The position numbers and the translations under genes are program-made. Positions 7,372-29,991 of a DNA stretch of 29,991 nucleotides are shown one piece after another. The notes under the pieces are model-generated. The model saw only the letters and a list, made by a program, of their open reading frames with translations. It searched no databases and was not told the origin of the DNA. The number at the start of each line of letters is the position of its first letter. Position 1 is the stretch's first letter. The stretch comes from a virus (Duplodnaviria; Caudoviricetes), in the IMG/VR virus record IMGVR_UViG_3300033407_000091, positions 1 to 29,991 of that record. One strand, 5' to 3'.

Positions 7372-7553
7372 ACGAGTACCACGTGATGCCCGCTTTCGAT
7401 AGGCCTGGCTGGGCTGTCCGACGAACTGGCGCCCGTCGTGCCACGAAGATCCATCCCGAGAAACAGGATGCAATAGAGGATGCGAAACGGCGCGGGGATG
7501 TGGTGTACGTTCACCGAAAAGACGGGATGGTAGAGAACAGAATCGAGAGATGA
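7368..7553 (+). CDS. DUF2188-like small protein
   Basis: YHVMP...GWAVRRTGARRAT...KQDAIEDAK...VYVHRKDG pattern matches my recollection of DUF2188. Confidence 0.75.
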   Translation: MNEYHVMPAFDRPGWAVRRTGARRATKIHPEKQDAIEDAKRRGDVVYVHRKDGMVENRIER

Positions 7554-8035
7554 TCCACAGTCCCGAATACCTCGAATCCAAGTACGAAACCCGCGATCCG
7601 TGGGGCTACCGCATCCATCCCGACGATATCGAGCGGAAGCGGCGGATCCTTGCGGTCATTGAAGAACTAGTGACGACGCATACTTTTCAGCGCGCGCTTG
7701 ATATCGGAGCCGGGGAAGGCTGGATCACGGCAGAACTGCCGGCCGAAGAGATCGAAGCGATTGAGATCAGCGACAACGCCGCTTCGCGCTTCCCGGACCA
7801 CGTTCGGCGCGTCAATGCCCCTACGGGTCACTATAGCCTCATTCTCGCCACCGGGATTCTCTATGCGCACTACAATGTTGATCTCTTCCATCACTGGATT
7901 AGACGCCACGCTTCCGGCCTGGTGGTCACGTGCAATCTTGCCGATAGCGAAGTGCCGCTAGATGCGGAAACTATCTATGAGGAGCGGTTTCCGTATCGGG
8001 ATAGGGTGCAACATCTCGCAGTCTATACGCCTTGA
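7550..8035 (+). CDS. Class I SAM-dependent methyltransferase (NodS-like)
   Basis: SAM motif ALDIGAGEG; N-terminal Y...DPWGY...ERK as in NodS-type methyltransferases. Confidence 0.8.
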   Translation: MIHSPEYLESKYETRDPWGYRIHPDDIERKRRILAVIEELVTTHTFQRALDIGAGEGWITAELPAEEIEAIEISDNAASRFPDHVRRVNAPTGHYSLILATGILYAHYNVDLFHHWIRRHASGLVVTCNLADSEVPLDAETIYEERFPYRDRVQHLAVYTP

Positions 8036-8511
8036 TCCTACTTCATTCCATAGCTCCCGAAAAACCAACCTCGAATTACAACACGAGGGCGGAAGTAATG
8101 TCGTCGACCGGCCCGCTCTCCTTCGACGGCGTGTACCGGAACGTCTTCGAGAACCGGGACGCGCTGAAGGGCAGAGAAGGAATAGCGTTCGTCATTGGAA
8201 ACGTCGTCGGCAAAGACAACTCGTTCGATACGGGCCAACCTCACGAGACGTTTTGCACGTGGGAAGAACTGGTCGAGCTCGGCCTTGAAATCGGCTGGCA
8301 CACGTGGACGCATCCTGATTTACGTGCGCTGTCCGATTCGGATTTAGAGAGCGAAGTCACGCCGCCGTATCACATGCGGCATTTCGCCTATCCGTACGGG
8401 AAGTTTGACAACAGAGTAATCGATGCCGTGAAGGACGCGGGGTTCGAATACGCATGGACGGCAGGCGGGGGAGATGATTCGCAGTATCAGAGACGGAGGT
8501 GGCACATTTGA
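8032..8511 (+). CDS. Polysaccharide deacetylase (NodB/CE4-like)
   Basis: LSFDG, EIGWHTWTHPDL and FAYPYG motifs. Confidence 0.85.
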   Translation: MILLHSIAPEKPTSNYNTRAEVMSSTGPLSFDGVYRNVFENRDALKGREGIAFVIGNVVGKDNSFDTGQPHETFCTWEELVELGLEIGWHTWTHPDLRALSDSDLESEVTPPYHMRHFAYPYGKFDNRVIDAVKDAGFEYAWTAGGGDDSQYQRRRWHI

Positions 8512-9158
8512 AATACCTCGTAGCCGTCACTCCGATTTGGCGCCGTCCCGCCCTAACCACGCAGTACATCCGTCAGATGCAGCGATGGAAGGATCGCGCC
8601 CGAAACTTCTCCCTGCTTTTGGTAGGCAGCGAACGCAAGCGGTCGAAGGCGCTCGCAGTTCCAGGCACGTGGTACATCGAGCACCGAAATAAACCTCTCG
8701 GCAAGAAATTCAACGCCGGCATCAGAAAGGCTCTCGAAATGGGCGCCGATTACGTCCTGATCATGGGCAGCGACCAGTTCGCGGACGTGTCGATGCTGGA
8801 TAAATACATCGAACTGATGGAAGAGGACGTTCCGTACGCCGGTGTGCTGGATACGTACGTGCTGGACGGCACGAGGGCGCTGTACTGGAAAGGCTACAGC
8901 GATGAACGCAAGGGCATGCCCGTTGGACCGGGGCGGCTCATTCGAAGGGACGTAATCGAGTCGATAGGCGATCTGTACGCCAACGGTCTCAGCCGGAATC
9001 TCGACGGTAGCGCGGATGCGAAACTGCCCGATCCGGTCGTGTTCTCGGGCAAGCCGTACCGGTTCGTCTCGGTGAAAACCGGAGAGTCGATCACGCCTGC
9101 GCGGCGGTATAAGGGGCGGGCCGTAAAGGCGTCACTGTTTCAGGATTTCTTTGAGTGA
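8508..9158 (+). CDS. GT-A fold glycosyltransferase-like protein (paralog 1)
   Basis: TTG start overlapping the upstream stop, with GGAGGT RBS. Has VTPIWRR, KFNAG and ADYVLIMGSDQF (DxD-like region). Confidence 0.7.
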   Translation: MKYLVAVTPIWRRPALTTQYIRQMQRWKDRARNFSLLLVGSERKRSKALAVPGTWYIEHRNKPLGKKFNAGIRKALEMGADYVLIMGSDQFADVSMLDKYIELMEEDVPYAGVLDTYVLDGTRALYWKGYSDERKGMPVGPGRLIRRDVIESIGDLYANGLSRNLDGSADAKLPDPVVFSGKPYRFVSVKTGESITPARRYKGRAVKASLFQDFFE

Positions 9159-9775
9159 CTGCGTCTAAAAACATATTGGTAGTTGCCCCACATTGCGATG
9201 ACGCCGAGCTCGGCTCCGGCGGCACTATCGCCCGATACGTCGAGGAAGGCCACAGCGTCCACGTCGTCGCGCTGTCGGACTGCCGGGACTCCATCCCTGC
9301 GGGCTTACCATCCGACGTACTGAGAGGCGAAGCACGGGCCGCAGGGAGCGTATTAGGAGCAACCGTCGCGGTGTATGACTTCGCCGTACGGACGTTTCCC
9401 GAGAAAAGACAGGACATCCTCGATTACCTGCACATGCTCGGGACGACGATCAAGCCGGATCTCGTTATCTGCCCGGCGCCGTCTGACTTCCACCAGGATC
9501 ATTTGACGGTATCGCTCGAATGCTTGCGCGCGTTCAAGTGCTCTATATGGGCAACCGTACTCCCCTGGAACACCCTTCGCTCGAACGTGAACGGCTTCGT
9601 CAGACTTGAGGAAAGGCACATTGAAAAGAAGGTCGAGGCATTGAGCAAGTACGCGAGCCAATCGCACCGGGCTTACATGGACCCGGTGACGGTGATTTCG
9701 TGGGCGCGGACGGACGGGCTGCAATGCGGGGCGAAATACGCTGAGAAATTCGAGGTCTTGAGGGAGATCAACTGA
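9155..9775 (+). CDS. PIG-L/LmbE family N-acetyl-sugar deacetylase
   Basis: VVAPHCDDAELGSGG, DFHQDH, KYASQ and AEKFEV motifs. Confidence 0.9.
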   Translation: MTASKNILVVAPHCDDAELGSGGTIARYVEEGHSVHVVALSDCRDSIPAGLPSDVLRGEARAAGSVLGATVAVYDFAVRTFPEKRQDILDYLHMLGTTIKPDLVICPAPSDFHQDHLTVSLECLRAFKCSIWATVLPWNTLRSNVNGFVRLEERHIEKKVEALSKYASQSHRAYMDPVTVISWARTDGLQCGAKYAEKFEVLREIN

Positions 9776-10086
9776 TGGCGAAAGTTCGAATTATGACTAC
9801 CCAAGGCACGGGCGAGAAAAGCGCCTGGTTCTGGTGCCCCGGATGTAAGGGATATCACCGGATTCCATTTGAAAATGGGCCGGTCACATGGGATTTCAAC
9901 GGCGACGTTGACGCGCCCACGATCAGCCCCTCGATACTCACGGACGGACACCGCCCTGAGCGCCGCTGTCACAGCTTTGTCCGGAGCGGCAAGATCCAAT
10001 TTCTCAACGACTGCGGGCATGAGTTGGCAGGCCAGACCGTCGAGTTACCTGAATGGAACGTTGAAAACGAGTCGTTTATAAACTGA
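9775..10086 (+). CDS. DUF6527-like Cys/His metal-binding protein
   Basis: FWCPGC...WDFNGD...PTISPSIL...CHSFVRSGKIQFLNDCGHELAGQTVELP pattern. Confidence 0.7.
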   Translation: MAKVRIMTTQGTGEKSAWFWCPGCKGYHRIPFENGPVTWDFNGDVDAPTISPSILTDGHRPERRCHSFVRSGKIQFLNDCGHELAGQTVELPEWNVENESFIN

Positions 10087-11141
10087 TGCGAGTATTACTG
10101 ACCGGCATCGGCGCGCCCGGCACCCCCGGAACCGTCCACTGTCTCCGCAATGGAGGCCCCGTCCGAATCATCGGATGCGATGCCGATCCGGACCCCGACA
10201 ACGCGCACCTCGTGGACGCCGTGTATCACGTGCCGAGACCGGACAACCCGGAATACCTCGATGAGATCGCTTCGATCTGTATTTGGGAATCCGTCGACGT
10301 CGTTCTCCCCCAAACCACAGCAGAAGTCGAGTTTCTATCCAGAACGAAGCATCAGCGACATTTGCTCGACGCGGGAGCAAGGGTAGCTTGCGCGAACGGG
10401 CACGCGGTAAAAGGGGCGAACGATAAGGCGCACGTGATGGAGGCGTTCGCGGCGATCGGGTTGCCGTCGCCCGAGTTTTTGATTATCTCAGATCGGCAAT
10501 GGCTGTATGAGGCAAAAGATCGTTTCGGGCTGCCATTCGTGATCAAGCCAAGGTCGTCGAATGGGAGTCGGGGGGTTCGGATTGTTCGGGACGACAACTG
10601 GATCGTGGATCATTTTCTCACCGACAAACCCGATGGCCTGAGCACGACGATGACGGCCATGTCTTTGATATTGGCCGCAATGGAGTCAGATGAAGGAGGG
10701 GCTCCCGAGCTGATCGCCATGGAGTTTTTGCCCGGCGATGAATTCTCCGTCGACGTATTCCGAGGCCTTCACGCACAAGCCGCCGTCCCGAGACTGCGAA
10801 AGAAGATGCGAGGCGGAATCTGCACGCACGCGGTTGTTGAGATGCGACAGGACTTGATCAACTACTCACTGAAGGCCGCGAAACATCTTGCGCTCACGGG
10901 CGCATTCGGGTTTCAGTATCGGCTTGATGGGGACGGCGTGCCGAAGGTGATCGAGTGCAATCCACGCGTGCAGGGTACGATGTGCGCCTCGTATTACGCC
11001 GGGCTGAACGCGCCGTGGCTTGCCGTCCGAGAGGCGATGATGGACCATCCGACTGAAATCAATCTGATAGACGGAAATATCGAATTCCGCAGGTGCTGGA
11101 GTGGAGTTGGGTTCGTCGACGAGGTGGCCGAATGCGTATAG
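10086..11141 (+). CDS. ATP-grasp domain protein
   Basis: NDK, PFVIKPRSSNGSRG, MEFLPGDEFSVD and IECNPR motifs, plus a Rossmann-like N-terminus (VLLTGIGAP). Confidence 0.9.
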   Translation: MRVLLTGIGAPGTPGTVHCLRNGGPVRIIGCDADPDPDNAHLVDAVYHVPRPDNPEYLDEIASICIWESVDVVLPQTTAEVEFLSRTKHQRHLLDAGARVACANGHAVKGANDKAHVMEAFAAIGLPSPEFLIISDRQWLYEAKDRFGLPFVIKPRSSNGSRGVRIVRDDNWIVDHFLTDKPDGLSTTMTAMSLILAAMESDEGGAPELIAMEFLPGDEFSVDVFRGLHAQAAVPRLRKKMRGGICTHAVVEMRQDLINYSLKAAKHLALTGAFGFQYRLDGDGVPKVIECNPRVQGTMCASYYAGLNAPWLAVREAMMDHPTEINLIDGNIEFRRCWSGVGFVDEVAECV

Positions 11142-11860
11142 GGCTCCTGACGTGCTGCTGGGCCGACGACGACCCCCCACGAGGCCGACTCGCGGAAATA
11201 GTTCTTCGTCATAATGGCGCAATCCGCGTTCCCGGCGTGGAGCTCGTCAGAGTCGCCGTGTACAGCCGTGAGGACAAACATATTTCCCCGGCCCTAGCCG
11301 TTCCGGGATGGACGTATCAGCAGTTTCCGAATCGCCCACTATCGGACAAATGGGACGCCGGCGCGAAGCTGCTCAGAACGAAGAACGTCGACGCCATGAT
11401 GATATTCGGCTCCGACGATTTCCTGAATGCGGAGTATATCGAAGCCGCTGCGGATGCCCTTCGAAAAGGCGCAAAGTACGCCATGCCAAAAAGCCTGTAT
11501 TTCTTCGACGCGAAGGAAAAGAAGGCGATGTACTGCCCGGTGATCGGAAGAGTGGGGGGAGGCCGGGCGCTGTCTAGGAATCTACTCGACAGGATGCACT
11601 GGGAGCCGTGGGAAAGGGGCTACCAGAGAAACATTGACGGCTGCATGGACCGGAGATTGATCGACATAGGCCACAAGCATCCCGACGCCACGATTGACGA
11701 CATACGATCCCTAAGCGCTCTGATTCTCGGGATTAAGACAGGCGGTAACCTTCACTCGTTCGACAAGATGCGCCGTGGATTGCAGGGCGAGCCTGTCGAT
11801 TCGGGGGCGCTTTTGGAAAGGTACGTGCCGGAGTATTCTGAGGAATTGCTCAATTGGTAA
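11132..11860 (+). CDS. GT-A fold glycosyltransferase-like protein (paralog 2)
   Basis: ATG 11132 after a GAGGTG RBS. Motifs NRPLSDKWDAG and VDAMMIFGSDDF are colinear with the 8508..9158 protein. Confidence 0.65.
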   Translation: MRIGLLTCCWADDDPPRGRLAEIVLRHNGAIRVPGVELVRVAVYSREDKHISPALAVPGWTYQQFPNRPLSDKWDAGAKLLRTKNVDAMMIFGSDDFLNAEYIEAAADALRKGAKYAMPKSLYFFDAKEKKAMYCPVIGRVGGGRALSRNLLDRMHWEPWERGYQRNIDGCMDRRLIDIGHKHPDATIDDIRSLSALILGIKTGGNLHSFDKMRRGLQGEPVDSGALLERYVPEYSEELLNW

Positions 11861-11898
11861 AGTGCGCGAAGTCACATATTGACCGCGATACCGAGCCC

Positions 11899-12045
11899 AT
11901 GCGACTGACTGAAAAGCAGTGGCAGGCCATCCGTCTACGAATCGAGTCGTATATCTCGCGGGGATGGGATGAGGCCCGAATCTACTGGCCTGACGGGGAG
12001 ATCGGCGTTTCGCCGGTACGGTTGGGGAAACGGGAGAAGGTATGA
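11899..12045 (+). CDS. Small hypothetical protein (48 aa; start uncertain, could be 11854)
   Basis: MRLTEKQWQAIRLRIE... fills the gap after the glycan cluster. Confidence 0.45.
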   Translation: MRLTEKQWQAIRLRIESYISRGWDEARIYWPDGEIGVSPVRLGKREKV

Positions 12046-12092
12046 TTGTGGAAAAGAAAGTCTATGCAGTTGGAAACGGGCGGCTTACAAGG

Positions 12093-12121
12093 TTGAAAGT
12101 GTAGCGCATCCCGGCTATATT
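12093..12121 (+). promoter_or_regulatory. Sigma70-like promoter upstream of the RAMP-like gene
   Basis: TTGAAA (12093-12098), 17 nt spacer, TATATT (12116-12121). The same GGTTGAAA...TATATTG frame recurs at 13990-14022. Confidence 0.65.
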
Positions 12122-12132
12122 GGTAGCGCATC
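12101..12132. repeat. 10-bp direct repeat GTAGCGCATC x2 flanking the -10 box (candidate operator)
   Basis: Exact copies at 12101-12110 and 12123-12132; quasi-palindromic with a GCGC core. Confidence 0.55.
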
Positions 12133-12160
12133 TAACAATCAACAAACTTCGGTTATTACA

Positions 12161-12829
12161 ATGGAAACGGTAGCAGTAAACGGCAAGTCTCATGCGGATC
12201 AGCTCCTGACGATCCCGCCGCCGAATTTCAAGGTGGCGCTCTTCACGGTTCGTGGTGATGCCCCGCTCGTGATGAACAAGTTCTCGGCGAAAGCCCGCGA
12301 GCAGATGAGGCAGAAACAGGAGGCCGGGTCGACGGGGAAGAAGGGCACGAAGCGGGAAGCGAAGGATTTCAATCTTGCCTATGAGCAGGCCATCCATCGT
12401 TCACGCGAGGGGTGGGTAGGTATTCCGGCCGGCGCGGTCAGGTCTTCTATGATTTCCGCCTGCAAGATCGTCGGGTTTCACATGACGAAGGGCAAGCTTG
12501 CCGTATTCATCCAGGCCGATGGATTCGAGGTGACGGACGGGACGCCGCTTATCAAGATCACGAAGGGCGAACCGCATTATCACGAGTCGTTGGTCCGGAA
12601 CGCCACGGGCGTGGCTGACATTCGCCCGCGCGCGATGTTTGACGAAGGATGGGAGGCGGATGTCCGTGTGAAATTCGACGCCGATATGTTCACCCTCGAA
12701 GACGTGGCGAACCTGCTTGTTCGGGCCGGGGCTCAGGTTGGTCTGCTCGAAGGTCGTCACGATTCGAGCAAGTCGTGCGGGCAGGGCTGGGGTACGTTCG
12801 AGGTGGTCGAAAGGAAGGAGGGCACATGA
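12161..12829 (+). CDS. Stand-alone Cas7/RAMP-like protein (Vipr-like), 222 aa
   Basis: RAMP-type motifs: first strand VRGDAPLVMN, GIPAGAVRSSMISA (cf. the IPGSSLKG motif) and C-terminal Gly-rich loop GAQVGLLEGR...GQGWGTFEV. ATG 12161 follows the promoter. Confidence 0.75.
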   Translation: METVAVNGKSHADQLLTIPPPNFKVALFTVRGDAPLVMNKFSAKAREQMRQKQEAGSTGKKGTKREAKDFNLAYEQAIHRSREGWVGIPAGAVRSSMISACKIVGFHMTKGKLAVFIQADGFEVTDGTPLIKITKGEPHYHESLVRNATGVADIRPRAMFDEGWEADVRVKFDADMFTLEDVANLLVRAGAQVGLLEGRHDSSKSCGQGWGTFEVVERKEGT

Positions 12830-13275
12830 GACGATCCGAAGTCTTATCCATACTGGAGGAAATGCGTGTCGAAAATGGCGGCACGCTTCCTCCTGAAATG
12901 GTGCTTGAGCGGGCGACACCCGTAAGCCATCCACTTCACGAGTGCTTTGAGTGGGATGATTCGAAGGCATCCCATGAGTATCGGCTGTGGCAGGCGCGGC
13001 AGCTCATCCGCGTTTCGGTCTCGGTGGTTCACCCTGAATTATCCCCCACGCGGACGTACGTTAGTCTTGTGGGGGATCGGCGCAACGGCACGGGGTACAG
13101 GAGCACCGTTGACTGTGCCCGAGATCCTGTACTCCGGGAACAGATGCTTGACGAGGCCCTCCGATATATGCAGGTTTTCGAGCGGAAGTATGGAATATTG
13201 TCGGAGCTTGCGACTGTTTTTACGGAGGTGAAAAGAGTGCGCCGATCTCGGAAGCGGGAGGGCGTTACAGCCTGA
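12826..13275 (+). CDS. Accessory protein coupled to the RAMP-like gene, 149 aa
   Basis: ATGA overlap with the RAMP stop and AAGGAGG RBS. Contains the motif HPLHECFEWDDSKASHEYRLWQARQLIR. The array starts 5 nt after its stop. Confidence 0.75.
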   Translation: MRRSEVLSILEEMRVENGGTLPPEMVLERATPVSHPLHECFEWDDSKASHEYRLWQARQLIRVSVSVVHPELSPTRTYVSLVGDRRNGTGYRSTVDCARDPVLREQMLDEALRYMQVFERKYGILSELATVFTEVKRVRRSRKREGVTA

Positions 13276-13280
13276 ATTGT

Positions 13281-13666
13281 GGCAGATGCGGTGTGACCAG
13301 GCGCGGTATGGTAAGGCCAGGTACGGCAGATGAGGCGAGGCCTGGTAAGGTACGGCATGATCGGGCAAGTTGAGGTATGGCAGATGCGGCTAGGCTCGGT
13401 GTGTTAGGCTCTGGTCTGGTAAGACTCGTTGCGGTTGGGCGTGGTACGGCAGATTTGGTGAGGCAAGCCCTGGTCGGTTTTGGTCTGTTCGGGTGGGGTG
13501 CGTTAAGTTACGGCAGGTTTGTTGTGGTGAGTCTTGGTATCGTGAGGTCGGGTTAGGTGAGGTACGGCAGATGAGGCAAGGTATGGCGCGGCAAGATGCG
13601 GCAAGGCGTGGCCGGGCGAGGTCTGGCATGGCACAGTAAGGTATAGTAGGACACGGCACGGCAGGC
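13281..13666 (+). ncRNA. GGY-NN pentamer guide-like array 1 (6 units)
   Basis: GGCA delimiters at 13281, 13325, 13379, 13448, 13512, 13566 and 13660. The units between them hold exactly 8, 10, 13, 12, 10 and 18 in-phase pentamers. No credible ORF. Confidence 0.8.
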
Positions 13667-13681
13667 AAAAAGACAACACGA

Positions 13682-13846
13682 ATGAAAAAGACTCCAACGA
13701 GCTTCAGGCTTTCAGACGATGCTCGCGACCTTTTACAGCAGCTATCCGAGAAAACCGGCATAAGCCAGGTAGCGGTACTCGAGATATTGATAAGGGAGAA
13801 GGCGAAGAAAGACGGGCTTACTGTGAGGCGTGATCCGCCAAGGTAA
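13682..13846 (+). CDS. Ribbon-helix-helix (CopG/Arc-like) DNA-binding protein, 54 aa; not in the ORF track
   Basis: Hand translation: MKKTPTSFRLSDDARDLLQQLSEKTGISQVAVLEILIREKAKKDGLTVRRDPPR*. TSFRL ribbon, helix, G-turn, helix. Confidence 0.8.
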   Translation: MKKTPTSFRLSDDARDLLQQLSEKTGISQVAVLEILIREKAKKDGLTVRRDPPR

Positions 13847-13862
13847 GTCTATGGTGAGATAC

Positions 13863-13989
13863 GGCAGGCAAGGTGCGGCCAGGCAAGGTCTGGCAAGGCG
13901 AGGTGTGGTGGGGCGAGGTGCGATAAGGTACGGCAGATATGGTGCGACCAGGTGTGTTTGGGTGTGCTTGGGTGTGATAGGGCATGGCA
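13863..13989 (+). ncRNA. GGY-NN pentamer guide-like array 2 (2 units, preceded by a degenerate unit at 13827-13862)
   Basis: GGCA delimiters at 13863, 13932 and 13986 enclose 13 and 10 in-phase pentamers. Confidence 0.8.
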
Positions 13990-13991
13990 GG

Positions 13992-14021
13992 TTGAAACAT
14001 TACCTGTTTCGGTGGTATATT
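13992..14021 (+). promoter_or_regulatory. Sigma70-like promoter with extended -10
   Basis: TTGAAA (13992-13997), 18 nt spacer, TGn-TATATT (14013-14021). Confidence 0.55.
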
Positions 14022-14111
14022 GATATAGAATAACGCCGCTTGCGTGGCGGGGTCGGCTCCGAACCCTATAATTCGGGCAACGATTACATCGCATTAGCGA
14101 AACCGCACTGT

Positions 14112-14160
14112 AGAAGGGCGGCATTTTCCTTAACCGGAAGATGCTGCCCTTTTTCTATTT
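14112..14160 (+). terminator. Intrinsic terminator-like hairpin
   Basis: 16-bp stem AAGGGCGGCATTTTCC / GGAAGATGCTGCCCTT (two G-U pairs), 6-nt loop, T-rich tail. Confidence 0.7.
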
Positions 14161-14232
14161 CATCCGGTCTGGCGAGCCGCAATTCGTCTTATCGGGTCTT
14201 TGCACCCTAAAGCAAATCAAAAAAACTGACCT

Positions 14233-15105
14233 ATGGACTGGGAAGCAATCAACAAAGCAATCGGCGAACTGATCACCGCAGCGAAAGCAACGGTGAAAGT
14301 CGATGGCCTGTCCGCGAAGGACGTCGAGCGTGCACATAACGAAGCCCTTGCCGCCGAACTCAGAAACATGGAGCACAGTGTGCGCCAGTTCCTGCATGAC
14401 GGCGGGCACTCTCAGGCGACCGCGCAGAACGCCGAGAAACTGAGAGTAGCCGCCGAGGCGACGAAGGCTCTTGAGACCGCGAAAGCGGATCTAGAGAAGC
14501 AGGTGAAGGAGCACAAGGACCGGATAGCCGAGATCGAGGCGAATACGCCCGATGCGGCCAAGATCCGCGACACGCTCCAATCTGAGTTCCAGAAGCGCGA
14601 AGAAGAGCTCGAGGGGAAGGTAACCTCTGCTGAGCAGCGCATGAAGGATCTCGAGGAAGCCCGAAAGACCGACAAGGTCGACGGCTTCGTGAACCGCTTC
14701 TTCGGACACGCCGGAAGCCGCGTAACGCCTGACGGTGAAGAGTGGCTGCGGGTGCGCGTCCAGAATATGCGCAACGATGGCCGCTTCATCCCGAAGATCG
14801 TGAGCGAAGAGGGCAAAGAGTCCCGGATCGGCGTGGCTGTGCTACGCCCCGGAAGCTCGGAGCTTGAATACCACGCCTCGAATGAGGAGGAGCTGCTCTC
14901 CGTCATCGCGAACGAAGTCTTCGAAAAGGCTCCCAAGTGGGCCGTGAAGGCGAACGTTTCCGGTGGAGGCGGCGCGCAAGGCGGCGGCTCAGGCGGAGGA
15001 GCGACGAAGTGGGATAAGATCCGAGAGACGGCCCAGGCCCGAGGCGTACAGCCCGGCCAGGAAAGCCTCAACGATCGCCGCGCGAAGCTTCTGCCGCAAG
15101 ACTAA
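14233..15105 (+). CDS. Capsid scaffold protein
   Basis: Coiled-coil-rich with a Gly-rich C-terminal linker; lies upstream of the decoration and capsid genes. Confidence 0.7.
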   Translation: MDWEAINKAIGELITAAKATVKVDGLSAKDVERAHNEALAAELRNMEHSVRQFLHDGGHSQATAQNAEKLRVAAEATKALETAKADLEKQVKEHKDRIAEIEANTPDAAKIRDTLQSEFQKREEELEGKVTSAEQRMKDLEEARKTDKVDGFVNRFFGHAGSRVTPDGEEWLRVRVQNMRNDGRFIPKIVSEEGKESRIGVAVLRPGSSELEYHASNEEELLSVIANEVFEKAPKWAVKANVSGGGGAQGGGSGGGATKWDKIRETAQARGVQPGQESLNDRRAKLLPQD

Positions 15106-15141
15106 TTCCCAGGGGGTCAACCATCAATTTAGGAGAAGATC

Positions 15142-15585
15142 ATGCCTTTTAAGCGCGAACAGGTCACGGCAGGGGGTACTCAGTACGGGTATCCTTTCGT
15201 CGACGGCCCGCGTGACGTGGAGCAGATCACGGTCGACCTCTCAACACTAACCTTTGCCGATGGATCGGGCGGGGAAGTGGACGGGGACGGCTACATCATT
15301 CCCGGCACGCCCCTCAATCAGTACGGCGACCTTTGCGGCGGATCCGTCACGGACGAATTCGTCTACGGCGTCGTCACGGCTCCCGTCTACGTGGGGTCGA
15401 ACCCCATCGACGCCGACGCCGACCTCGACGTCCTGACGGACATACAGTGCGCCGTTGCGCGCAGTGGTCTCGTCAACCGGGATATCGTCGAGGACAATCT
15501 CGGACGCGCACTGAATGCGAACGAGATCGCGGCCTTCAATGCCGCCGGGTCCGAACTCATGATCACCAGCACCGGAACACCCTAA
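15142..15585 (+). CDS. Head decoration/stabilising protein (lambda D-like)
   Basis: 147 aa, IIPGTPL motif, AGGAG RBS; lies between scaffold and capsid genes. Confidence 0.65.
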   Translation: MPFKREQVTAGGTQYGYPFVDGPRDVEQITVDLSTLTFADGSGGEVDGDGYIIPGTPLNQYGDLCGGSVTDEFVYGVVTAPVYVGSNPIDADADLDVLTDIQCAVARSGLVNRDIVEDNLGRALNANEIAAFNAAGSELMITSTGTP

Positions 15586-28447: not shown

Positions 28448-29028
28448 TGGCAAAAGCCGCGAAGAAAAAGCCGGGCAAAATCACACTATCCCTCGACGCT
28501 AAAGCGGTCATGGACGGGATCTCTCGTCTCGATCGTCTAAAGAGGCACATGAAGGGACGCCGTCGCCTTCAGATAGAGATGAATATACACGAGCTCAACC
28601 GGATTGCCGATCCTATTCGAAAGGCCGTCGAGGGCGTGTCGAAAGAGCGGGCGATCAAAGATCCGTCAGGCGAGCCGGTTCAGAACTTCATCCCGATCAG
28701 GAAAAACCCCGACATGCGGCTCGACTTCTCCCGATACGACGGGCAGTGGAAAGAGGGCGAATACGCCCCAGGGCGAATCGTGATGTTCTCGAACGCCTTC
28801 TACGAGGCCGAGGACGTGACGAGCGAAAGGCCTCCGTCTGATACGTGGGCACATATCGGAGATGGGGGGAACGGGCATTTTCTCGAGGATCCTGTCGCGT
28901 GGCGGAAAGAGGTTCAGGAAATCGAATTGGAGACACACGACATGGAGCTTTACACCATACCGGCCTCGCTCTACGACGAGCATGACATTGACGAGTGCTG
29001 GCTGGAGATAACGGATATGGGGGAATAG
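28447..29028 (+). CDS. Hypothetical protein with CBM5/12-like segment
   Basis: WKEGEYAPGRIVMFSNAFYEA...PPSDTW resembles ChtBD3/CBM5/12 aromatic spacing. Confidence 0.6.
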   Translation: MAKAAKKKPGKITLSLDAKAVMDGISRLDRLKRHMKGRRRLQIEMNIHELNRIADPIRKAVEGVSKERAIKDPSGEPVQNFIPIRKNPDMRLDFSRYDGQWKEGEYAPGRIVMFSNAFYEAEDVTSERPPSDTWAHIGDGGNGHFLEDPVAWRKEVQEIELETHDMELYTIPASLYDEHDIDECWLEITDMGE

Positions 29029-29033
29029 AATCC

Positions 29034-29991
29034 ATGATAAGCGTATTCACACCCGTCCATCCGAGTAGCGCGGTCCACCTCCCCGAGGCGGTCAAGTCGA
29101 TGCGCGAGCAGTCTCGCGACGACATGGAATGGGTGCTCCTCTATAACGGAGGCGCGGAGCCTATCGGCACGGGGTTTCGAGAGATCGTTCTACCTGAGCG
29201 CCATCCTGCACAGGGCAGCGTCGGCGCGCTAAAGAAATACGCCTGCTCGGAAGCGAAAGGAGATATCTTGGTCGAGCTCGACGCAGACGACATTTTAACA
29301 CAGGACGCACTCGAGAAGATCGAGACGACTTTTTCCGATCCGTCCATTCAATTCGCCTACTCCAACTGTGCGGAGTTTCGCAGCGGTACGTGGGAGCCGC
29401 GCGTTTTCTCCGAGTACTGGGGATGGACGGACCGGCCTTTCGAGTGGGATGGAAAGGCGCTCCGGGAGCAAGTCGCATTTAGTCCGGGCCCTAACTCTTG
29501 GCGACGGATCGAGTGGGCCCCGAACCACGTCAGGGCGTGGAGAAGATCGGCTTACGACGCACTCGGCGGACACGACGAGAAGTTGAAAGTCGGCGACGAT
29601 CACGACCTCGTTTGTAGGACAGCTGTCCGGTACGGGTTCTCCTCTGTAAAGCACATCGACGAGTGCCTGTATCTCTATCGGCTGCACGAGAATAACACGT
29701 GCTATTCGAAGAAGGGGAACCGGGCTGTTCAGGATCAGACTTCGGTGAACTACCAGGTCTATTACGAGCCCATGGCGATGCGGTGGGCTCGGGATAACGG
29801 GCTCCTGTGCCTCGACCTTGGCGGGGGCATCGACGGCCGGCCGGGTTACGTGACGGTAGACCAGCGCGGCGGACAGATCGAGGCGGATCTCACGAAGCGT
29901 TGGCCGTTTGCGGATTCGTCCGTCGGTGTGCTCAGGGCATCGCACTTGCTCGAGCATCTACCCGACCCGATCCACTCGATGAACGAGGCGT
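29034..29991 (+). CDS. GT2 glycosyltransferase fused to class I SAM methyltransferase (3'-truncated; not in the ORF track)
   Basis: Hand translation from ATG 29034: MISVFTPVH...AKGDILVELDADD...LGGHDEKLKVGDDHDL...LYLYRLH (GT2), then LDLGGG...WPFADSSV...SHLLEHL (methyltransferase). Open to the window end. Confidence 0.85.
   Translation, partial: MISVFTPVHPSSAVHLPEAVKSMREQSRDDMEWVLLYNGGAEPIGTGFREIVLPERHPAQGSVGALKKYACSEAKGDILVELDADDILTQDALEKIETTFSDPSIQFAYSNCAEFRSGTWEPRVFSEYWGWTDRPFEWDGKALREQVAFSPGPNSWRRIEWAPNHVRAWRRSAYDALGGHDEKLKVGDDHDLVCRTAVRYGFSSVKHIDECLYLYRLHENNTCYSKKGNRAVQDQTSVNYQVYYEPMAMRWARDNGLLCLDLGGGIDGRPGYVTVDQRGGQIEADLTKRWPFADSSVGVLRASHLLEHLPDPIHSMNEA

Follow-up and report, generated by a model that had tools for sequence, protein, structure and literature searches.

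A staggered GGY/NN pentamer array behind a vipr homologue in a tailed phage probably encodes eight VIPR guide RNAs

The wobble-skipping guide code was reported in 2026 and proved by biochemical, genetic and structural work. VIPR was defined, and its one-base skip established by target search, binding and repression of GFP, in 10.64898/2026.04.26.720920; the skip falls mostly on codon position 3 (the wobble position), targets lie on both strands, and wobble skipping was argued to block synonymous escape. The guides described in that work have no self-target and a reported length of 9-16 pentamers. The skip rule was tested experimentally in SUSP1 only, and gap-1 matches of at least 80% were obtained for 44/63 type III and 23/39 type V guides (10.64898/2026.04.26.720920). 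The available part of its Fig. S18 presents staggered vrRNA arrays, in which guides overlap by one base, and the texts consulted report no functional test of this clade. Three further sources, each accessible in part, provide structures of VIPR (10.64898/2026.04.26.720927), a case of wobble-aligned targeting of a satellite recombinase (10.64898/2026.10.15.759431) and the recovery of 99 period-5 clusters (10.64898/2026.10.21.760802). A literature search for VIPR papers beyond these four returned none; the strand bias or the type of the staggered clade may already stand in their supplementary tables.

The window analyzed here, the whole 29,991-nucleotide stretch of IMG/VR record IMGVR_UViG_3300033407_000091, carries tailed-phage genes (terminase, portal, head morphogenesis, scaffold, major head and tape-measure) and the cassette listed in Table 1, which is flanked on one side by a block of sugar-modifying and ATP-grasp genes and on the other by the scaffold gene. 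Its array very probably represents eight VIPR guide RNAs encoded behind Vipr and an accessory gene, with each NN reading two target bases and the third base skipped. The locus is accordingly one more phage example of a published code, and a compact candidate for one-base skipping without a structured tail. Within this 30 kb fragment it has the minimal composition of VIPR, vipr plus an accessory gene with no cas operon or CRISPR array, and not the combination of repeat-spacer array and cas genes that marks class 1 CRISPR-Cas: no Cas Pfam family was found among the 33 window proteins scanned, and no CRISPR repeat-spacer array in 12000-15500, where the only repeats are those of the pentamer array. 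A homologue of the accessory gene is present in 82/90 related vipr loci. No similarity between the accessory protein and SUSP1 Vap1 was found, and Foldseek gave no match to it at E≤0.001; the best fold match (Z 5.4) covers 51 residues of helical hairpin.

Table 1. Features of the cassette and its flanks, in window coordinates
Feature	Position	Strand	Basis or remark
Sigma-70-like promoter match upstream of vipr	12093..12121	+	10/12 consensus matches; chance level (2 found vs 1.6 expected in shuffles)
vipr, 222 aa stand-alone RAMP (Cas7-like) protein P0001	12161..12829	+	Predicted structure; phrog_4652
Accessory (vap-position) gene, 149 aa, mostly helical	12826..13275	+	Overlaps vipr stop; phrog_15946, unknown function
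Guide array A, six staggered GGY/NN units U1-U6	13281..13664	+	Pentamer parsing
U1-U6: 8, 10, 13, 12, 10 and 18 pentamers, GGCAG closing each	Array A	+	
Ribbon-helix-helix (RHH) gene, 54 aa, interrupting the array	13682..13846	+	Pfam RHH_3, E=1e-4, 22.5 bits vs cut-off 21.6
Degenerate ninth unit, one-base slip, overlaps RHH gene end	13827..13867	+	Read from sequence
Guide array B, two staggered units U7 and U8 (13 and 10 pentamers plus GGCAG)	13863..13990	+	
Structured stretch 3' of array, terminator-like hairpin at 14112-14153	14030..14160	+	Folding z -5.1; terminator scan

Parsing of 13285-13659 and 13867-13985 yields 94 pentamers. It reproduces exactly the eight NN strings that a preliminary description of this DNA had extracted, along with its dinucleotide counts (AA 14, GA 11, GC 10 and CC 0 among 94). 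The first three positions of the pentamer form the scaffold (G in 91/94, G in 67/94 and a pyrimidine in 94/94), and positions 4 and 5 are near-maximal in entropy, at 1.86 and 1.93 bits. This format, a fixed GGY and a variable NN on the vipr strand, is that of VIPR guides. The scaffold score is 252/282, whereas 10,000 shuffles average 118 and never exceed 146, and the period-5 signal is confined to the + strand and the array region of the 29,991-base window. Ten GGCAG motifs mark the unit junctions. All eight start-to-start unit spacings are 4 modulo 5, so that neighbours share one base, which is the defining arrangement of a staggered array; with this spacing at GGCAG, a constant AG therefore also ends each unit. 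Among the long tracts of related loci the last NN is AG in 157/229 and the penultimate NN starts with A in at least 155/229, and the last one or two NN of each unit (AC/AT, AG) are likely a structural end and not target letters. Counting the closing GGCAG, units are 9-19 pentamers long. They fold as RNA no better than shuffles, with the exception of U7 (z -2.1; one of eight).

U1 and U8 (13281-13324 and 13932-13985) have almost identical first four scaffold triplets with one NN in common, and U8 contains an internal 10-base repeat, which together with the U1/U8 likeness may record a duplication. The tail of U6 consists of degenerate pentamers, and the ninth unit contains a CC. The last codons of the RHH gene come from this degenerate unit; tblastn found no match to the gene in 90 related vipr loci, a search of low power at 54 aa. 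Lying within the array, the RHH gene might add its own control.

The vipr product, P0001, is homologous to the characterized Vipr of SUSP1: phrog_4652 matches both (E=9e-14 over residues 29-215 of P0001, E=1e-96 for SUSP1 Vipr), and hhalign aligns the two over 45 columns with a probability of 72% (E=3e-5). SUSP1 Vipr was picked by gene position and by the residues named in the available part of 10.64898/2026.04.26.720927, with which its sequence agrees except at position 175. Profile alignment places R157, E197 and R199 of P0001 on SUSP1 R138, D177 and R179, which the same partly available source identifies as GGY contacts in the structure. A Pfam scan of P0001 and a sequence search of solved structures with it returned no match; homologues at E≤0.001 number 2,328. 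The AlphaFold2 model (pLDDT 89.6) has 58 Foldseek matches at E≤0.001, headed by Csm, Cmr and type VII complexes, and its comparison with a Cmr chain gives Z 11.2 and rmsd 3.5 over 148 aligned residues. The predicted fold is that of VIPR, a stand-alone RAMP with RRM core, thumb and G-loop; we infer that the hairpin at 138-160 is the thumb. The RAMPs of class 1 CRISPR (Cas7, Csm3, Cmr4) share the predicted RRM-based fold with its G-rich loop and, likely, the filament on guide RNA; unlike them, P0001 is accompanied by no Cas family or repeat-spacer array, and its specificity would be non-contiguous.

As far as the available part of Fig. S18 (10.64898/2026.04.26.720920) extends, staggered VIPR loci and the present one have in common vipr with one accessory gene, GGY/NN pentamers, the one-base overlap, a location in phage and the lack of a self-target; the present array differs in being split by a small RHH gene and in the length of U6, whose 18 pentamers plus end exceed the reported 9-16. 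Eighty related viral loci were kept from 558 confirmed. A GGY/NN tract of at least six units lies on the vipr strand in 65/80 of them, and 113/167 neighbouring tracts overlap by exactly one base, 70 of these at GGCAG.

Likeness to the type II system of the Escherichia phage SUSP1 extends to the Vipr PHROG family, the aligned thumb arginine and G-loop acidic and arginine residues, and the logic of the repeat. In contrast to SUSP1, no structured 3' tail follows each guide, the accessory protein is a different one, and a glycine stands in place of W178; the invariant structured 3' tail and vap1 that define type II VIPR (SUSP1, P. fulva) are absent, and units abut directly. In SUSP1, W178 stacks on G2. 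Its counterpart in P0001 is G198 (window 12752-12754), which lies among the glycines at 190-211 that are invariant among 120 homologues and is itself invariant. The array, for its part, varies most at scaffold position 2, more than at position 1; the corresponding SUSP1 tally is GG 40, AG 5, TG 4 and GT 1 of 50. With no structured 3' tail and a glycine at the W178 position, details may therefore differ from SUSP1. Taken further, the locus might be VIPR of a staggered, tail-less clade that reads its guides differently, by skipping a different number of bases, reading a shorter stretch or targeting RNA. The glycine, the G at scaffold position 2 in only 67/94 pentamers and an accessory gene unrelated to vap1 would all suit such a reading, but the published type III and type V gap-1 matches extend the one-base rule beyond type II (10.64898/2026.04.26.720920), and the composition and order of the NN, described next, are what a one-base skip predicts. 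A different way of reading is accordingly improbable.

The preliminary description held that the NN read like codon positions 1+2. Scoring of the 86 internal NN with frame models built from the window's own genes upholds this to the extent that sense 1+2 is the best of the six frames (p=0.0002 vs base shuffles); the signal is, on the other hand, mainly one of positional base composition (p=0.05 in within-position shuffles). Log-likelihoods relative to a uniform model are +9.0 for sense 1+2, +3.0 for antisense 2+3, which also passes the base-shuffle test (p=0.0006), and negative for the other four frames. Unit by unit, sense 1+2 does better than the uniform model in six of eight; U3 and U8 misfit it, each with a log-likelihood ratio of -1.7. 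In 201 guides of relatives the score of sense 1+2 reaches +89 and that of every other frame is negative; these guides come from tracts of at least nine pentamers, leave out the last three NN and contain no exact duplicates. NN order, tested independently of composition in 198 of the relatives' guides, is positive for sense 1+2 only (z=2.3, p=0.012, which for the clade becomes ~0.07 after allowing for six frames); strings of real codons have z 2.1-4.8 in this test, and the window alone gives a non-significant p=0.17. A mixture fit to the 198 guides assigns 88% to sense and 12% to antisense. These codon-order and strand statistics rest on loci that are related to each other. The four guides of SUSP1 are too few to rank frames and make an uninformative control. 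Two supports that had been offered for the codon reading fall away: the peptide readings of the units carry no evidence, and a lack of CC is no property of codon starts, which predict 3.5 CC among the 86 internal NN (p=0.03 for none).

A protein preference for purines after a pyrimidine could mimic part of this codon-like signal. Extended to the whole array, the argument would be that the NN bias reflects constraints of RNA or protein (a purine favoured after the pyrimidine, pairing with GG disfavoured), or that the array is decaying, and that its letters no longer specify targets. A signal that is mostly positional base use, the count of CC (0/94) and the A-start of the penultimate NN in most relatives (at least 155/229), which shows that structural bias exists, fit such a reading, as do the interruption by the RHH gene and a slipped unit, a repetitive U8 and the degenerate end pentamers of U6. 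Yet vipr and the accessory gene are intact, scaffold position 3 is a pyrimidine in every pentamer, relatives do use CC (52/1,616 NN), the units (U7 apart) fold no better than shuffles and the order signal is specific to one frame, all of which makes loss of target meaning improbable, somewhat more so than an altered mode of reading. An origin of the array as a simple tandem repeat, repetitive coding sequence or error of assembly can be all but dismissed: short ORFs do overlap it on both strands, but near-maximal NN entropy stands beside a fixed scaffold, 65/80 related loci have an array of this design next to their vipr gene, and one public soil-metagenome contig, which may be the source of this DNA, spans 11800-14400 without a difference. 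That soil metagenome is the one run listed as containing the whole stretch, and no RNA data set is listed with it.

The preliminary description had seen no self-target by eye, and this is borne out at gaps 0-3 within the 30 kb fragment, where the best matches stay within the range of shuffled guides; VIPR guides likewise do not target their own locus. The search for gapped patterns that it proposed led to no target, held-out bases being unmatched or matches too short to judge. Nine exact gap-1 scans of sequence collections were run with six units (U2-U7), gaps 0, 2 and 3 being confined to local sequence. In viral contigs the patterns were 9 (U3), 22 (U4), 23 (U2) and 19 (U5) bases long, with 18 bases for U6 (0 loci) and 16 for U7 (32 loci); metagenome contigs gave 23 matches to 18 bases of U6 and none to 22 bases of U7, and species genomes gave 2 matches to 22 bases of U6. 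Agreement at held-out bases was 17-38% in five scans; for U2, where GA is a common codon start, it was 57% of 2 bases.

Several candidates were set aside. The two U6 genome matches lie at the C-terminal end of one gene in two related genomes, whose motifs suggest an acyl-CoA synthetase-like protein; only 4-5/12 held-out bases agree, and ~0.1-0.5 such events are expected by chance on a rough codon-usage estimate. Chance could equally account for the short 18/18 matches of U2 (4 distinct) and U5 (2 distinct), and eight of the best-scoring genes belong to unrelated families. Long in-frame ORFs contain 22/25 distinct chance matches of U7, which indicates codon likeness and not targeting. Allowing 3 mismatches, U3, U6 and U7 match 0/50 related phage records. 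For 159 clade guides searched against 2.76 Mb of related loci, the mean best match is 0.802 at gap 1 vs 0.794-0.796 at other gaps, with none at 95% or more; guides compared with other VIPR loci, arrays unmasked, stay within the shuffled range. In natural targets one in ten of the bases read is often mismatched, according to the available part of 10.64898/2026.10.15.759431, and exact scans are weak for that reason. This outcome, no gap-1 target, also agrees with a staggered clade that reads its guides in another way.

For the one-base-skip reading of the array, the gapped, wobble-skipping code proposed in the preliminary description is thus upheld as the published mechanism of VIPR, at a locus with the VIPR features that were looked for; it falls short in the matter of a target here and as a new idea. 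The code is probably correct for this locus, and a one-base gap in codon phase would follow from membership of the VIPR family. What was observed is the anatomy of the repeats, their stagger at GGCAG, the homology to SUSP1 Vipr, a gene order conserved among relatives and a composition like codon positions 1+2; for expression, processing, skip length, targets and outcome, SUSP1 and the published type II systems serve as the model. By that analogy, the operon would be transcribed through the array and cut into units at the overlaps; Vipr would coat each guide, one protomer per pentamer, hiding GGY; and the filament would bind double-stranded DNA without a PAM, two bases on and one off, with the skipped third base expected at the wobble position of a codon in most cases. 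The bound filament would keep a competing mobile element, such as another phage or a satellite, from being transcribed. Most guides likely carry coding-strand letters and would pair with the template strand.

This apparent coding-strand bias differs from the type II targets, which are reported on both strands. A tentative and rather doubtful generalization is that guides of the staggered, tail-less clade almost all carry the sense of their target's coding strand, in codon register (about 88% of 198). If it holds, it would suggest that a single strand of a gene is what guides are derived from or selected against, and this bias would offer a lead on how guides arise and a handle on how five-base-repeat guides are acquired.

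The surroundings of the cassette merit brief description. Directly 3' of the array a promoter-like match is followed by several hairpins, and a stem resembling a terminator precedes the scaffold gene; this stretch (13992-14160) could be a small RNA or a leader, and an Rfam search of the stretch after the array found no family at gathering score. Between the head morphogenesis genes and the cassette, 7550-11860 contains methyltransferase, polysaccharide deacetylase, PIG-L deacetylase and ATP-grasp genes, and a family 2 glycosyltransferase gene lies at 28995-29990; block and glycosyltransferase possibly serve modification of the virion or of DNA.

Related loci vary in their arrays. By the parser, 15/80 have no six-unit GGY/NN tract, and one of these (L156) is cut short; tract-less loci that retain the accessory gene (L167-L171, L173, L175, L182, L186, L189, L198, L201, L209 and L214) may use a different repeat consensus. 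Second GGY/NN arrays occur 3-7 kb from vipr in L147 (10729-11010), L158 (5760), L163 (5848-6000) and L215 (15624), and opposite-strand GGY/NN arrays in a few other loci, for example L142, L159 and L215. Cyanophage Cy-LDV1 (BK059895.1; L001, 3977-5540) carries a staggered VIPR whose protein, annotated as hypothetical, is 56% identical to P0001, and 27 mycobacteriophage records (H2-H28) carry a homologue that is 34% identical to it.
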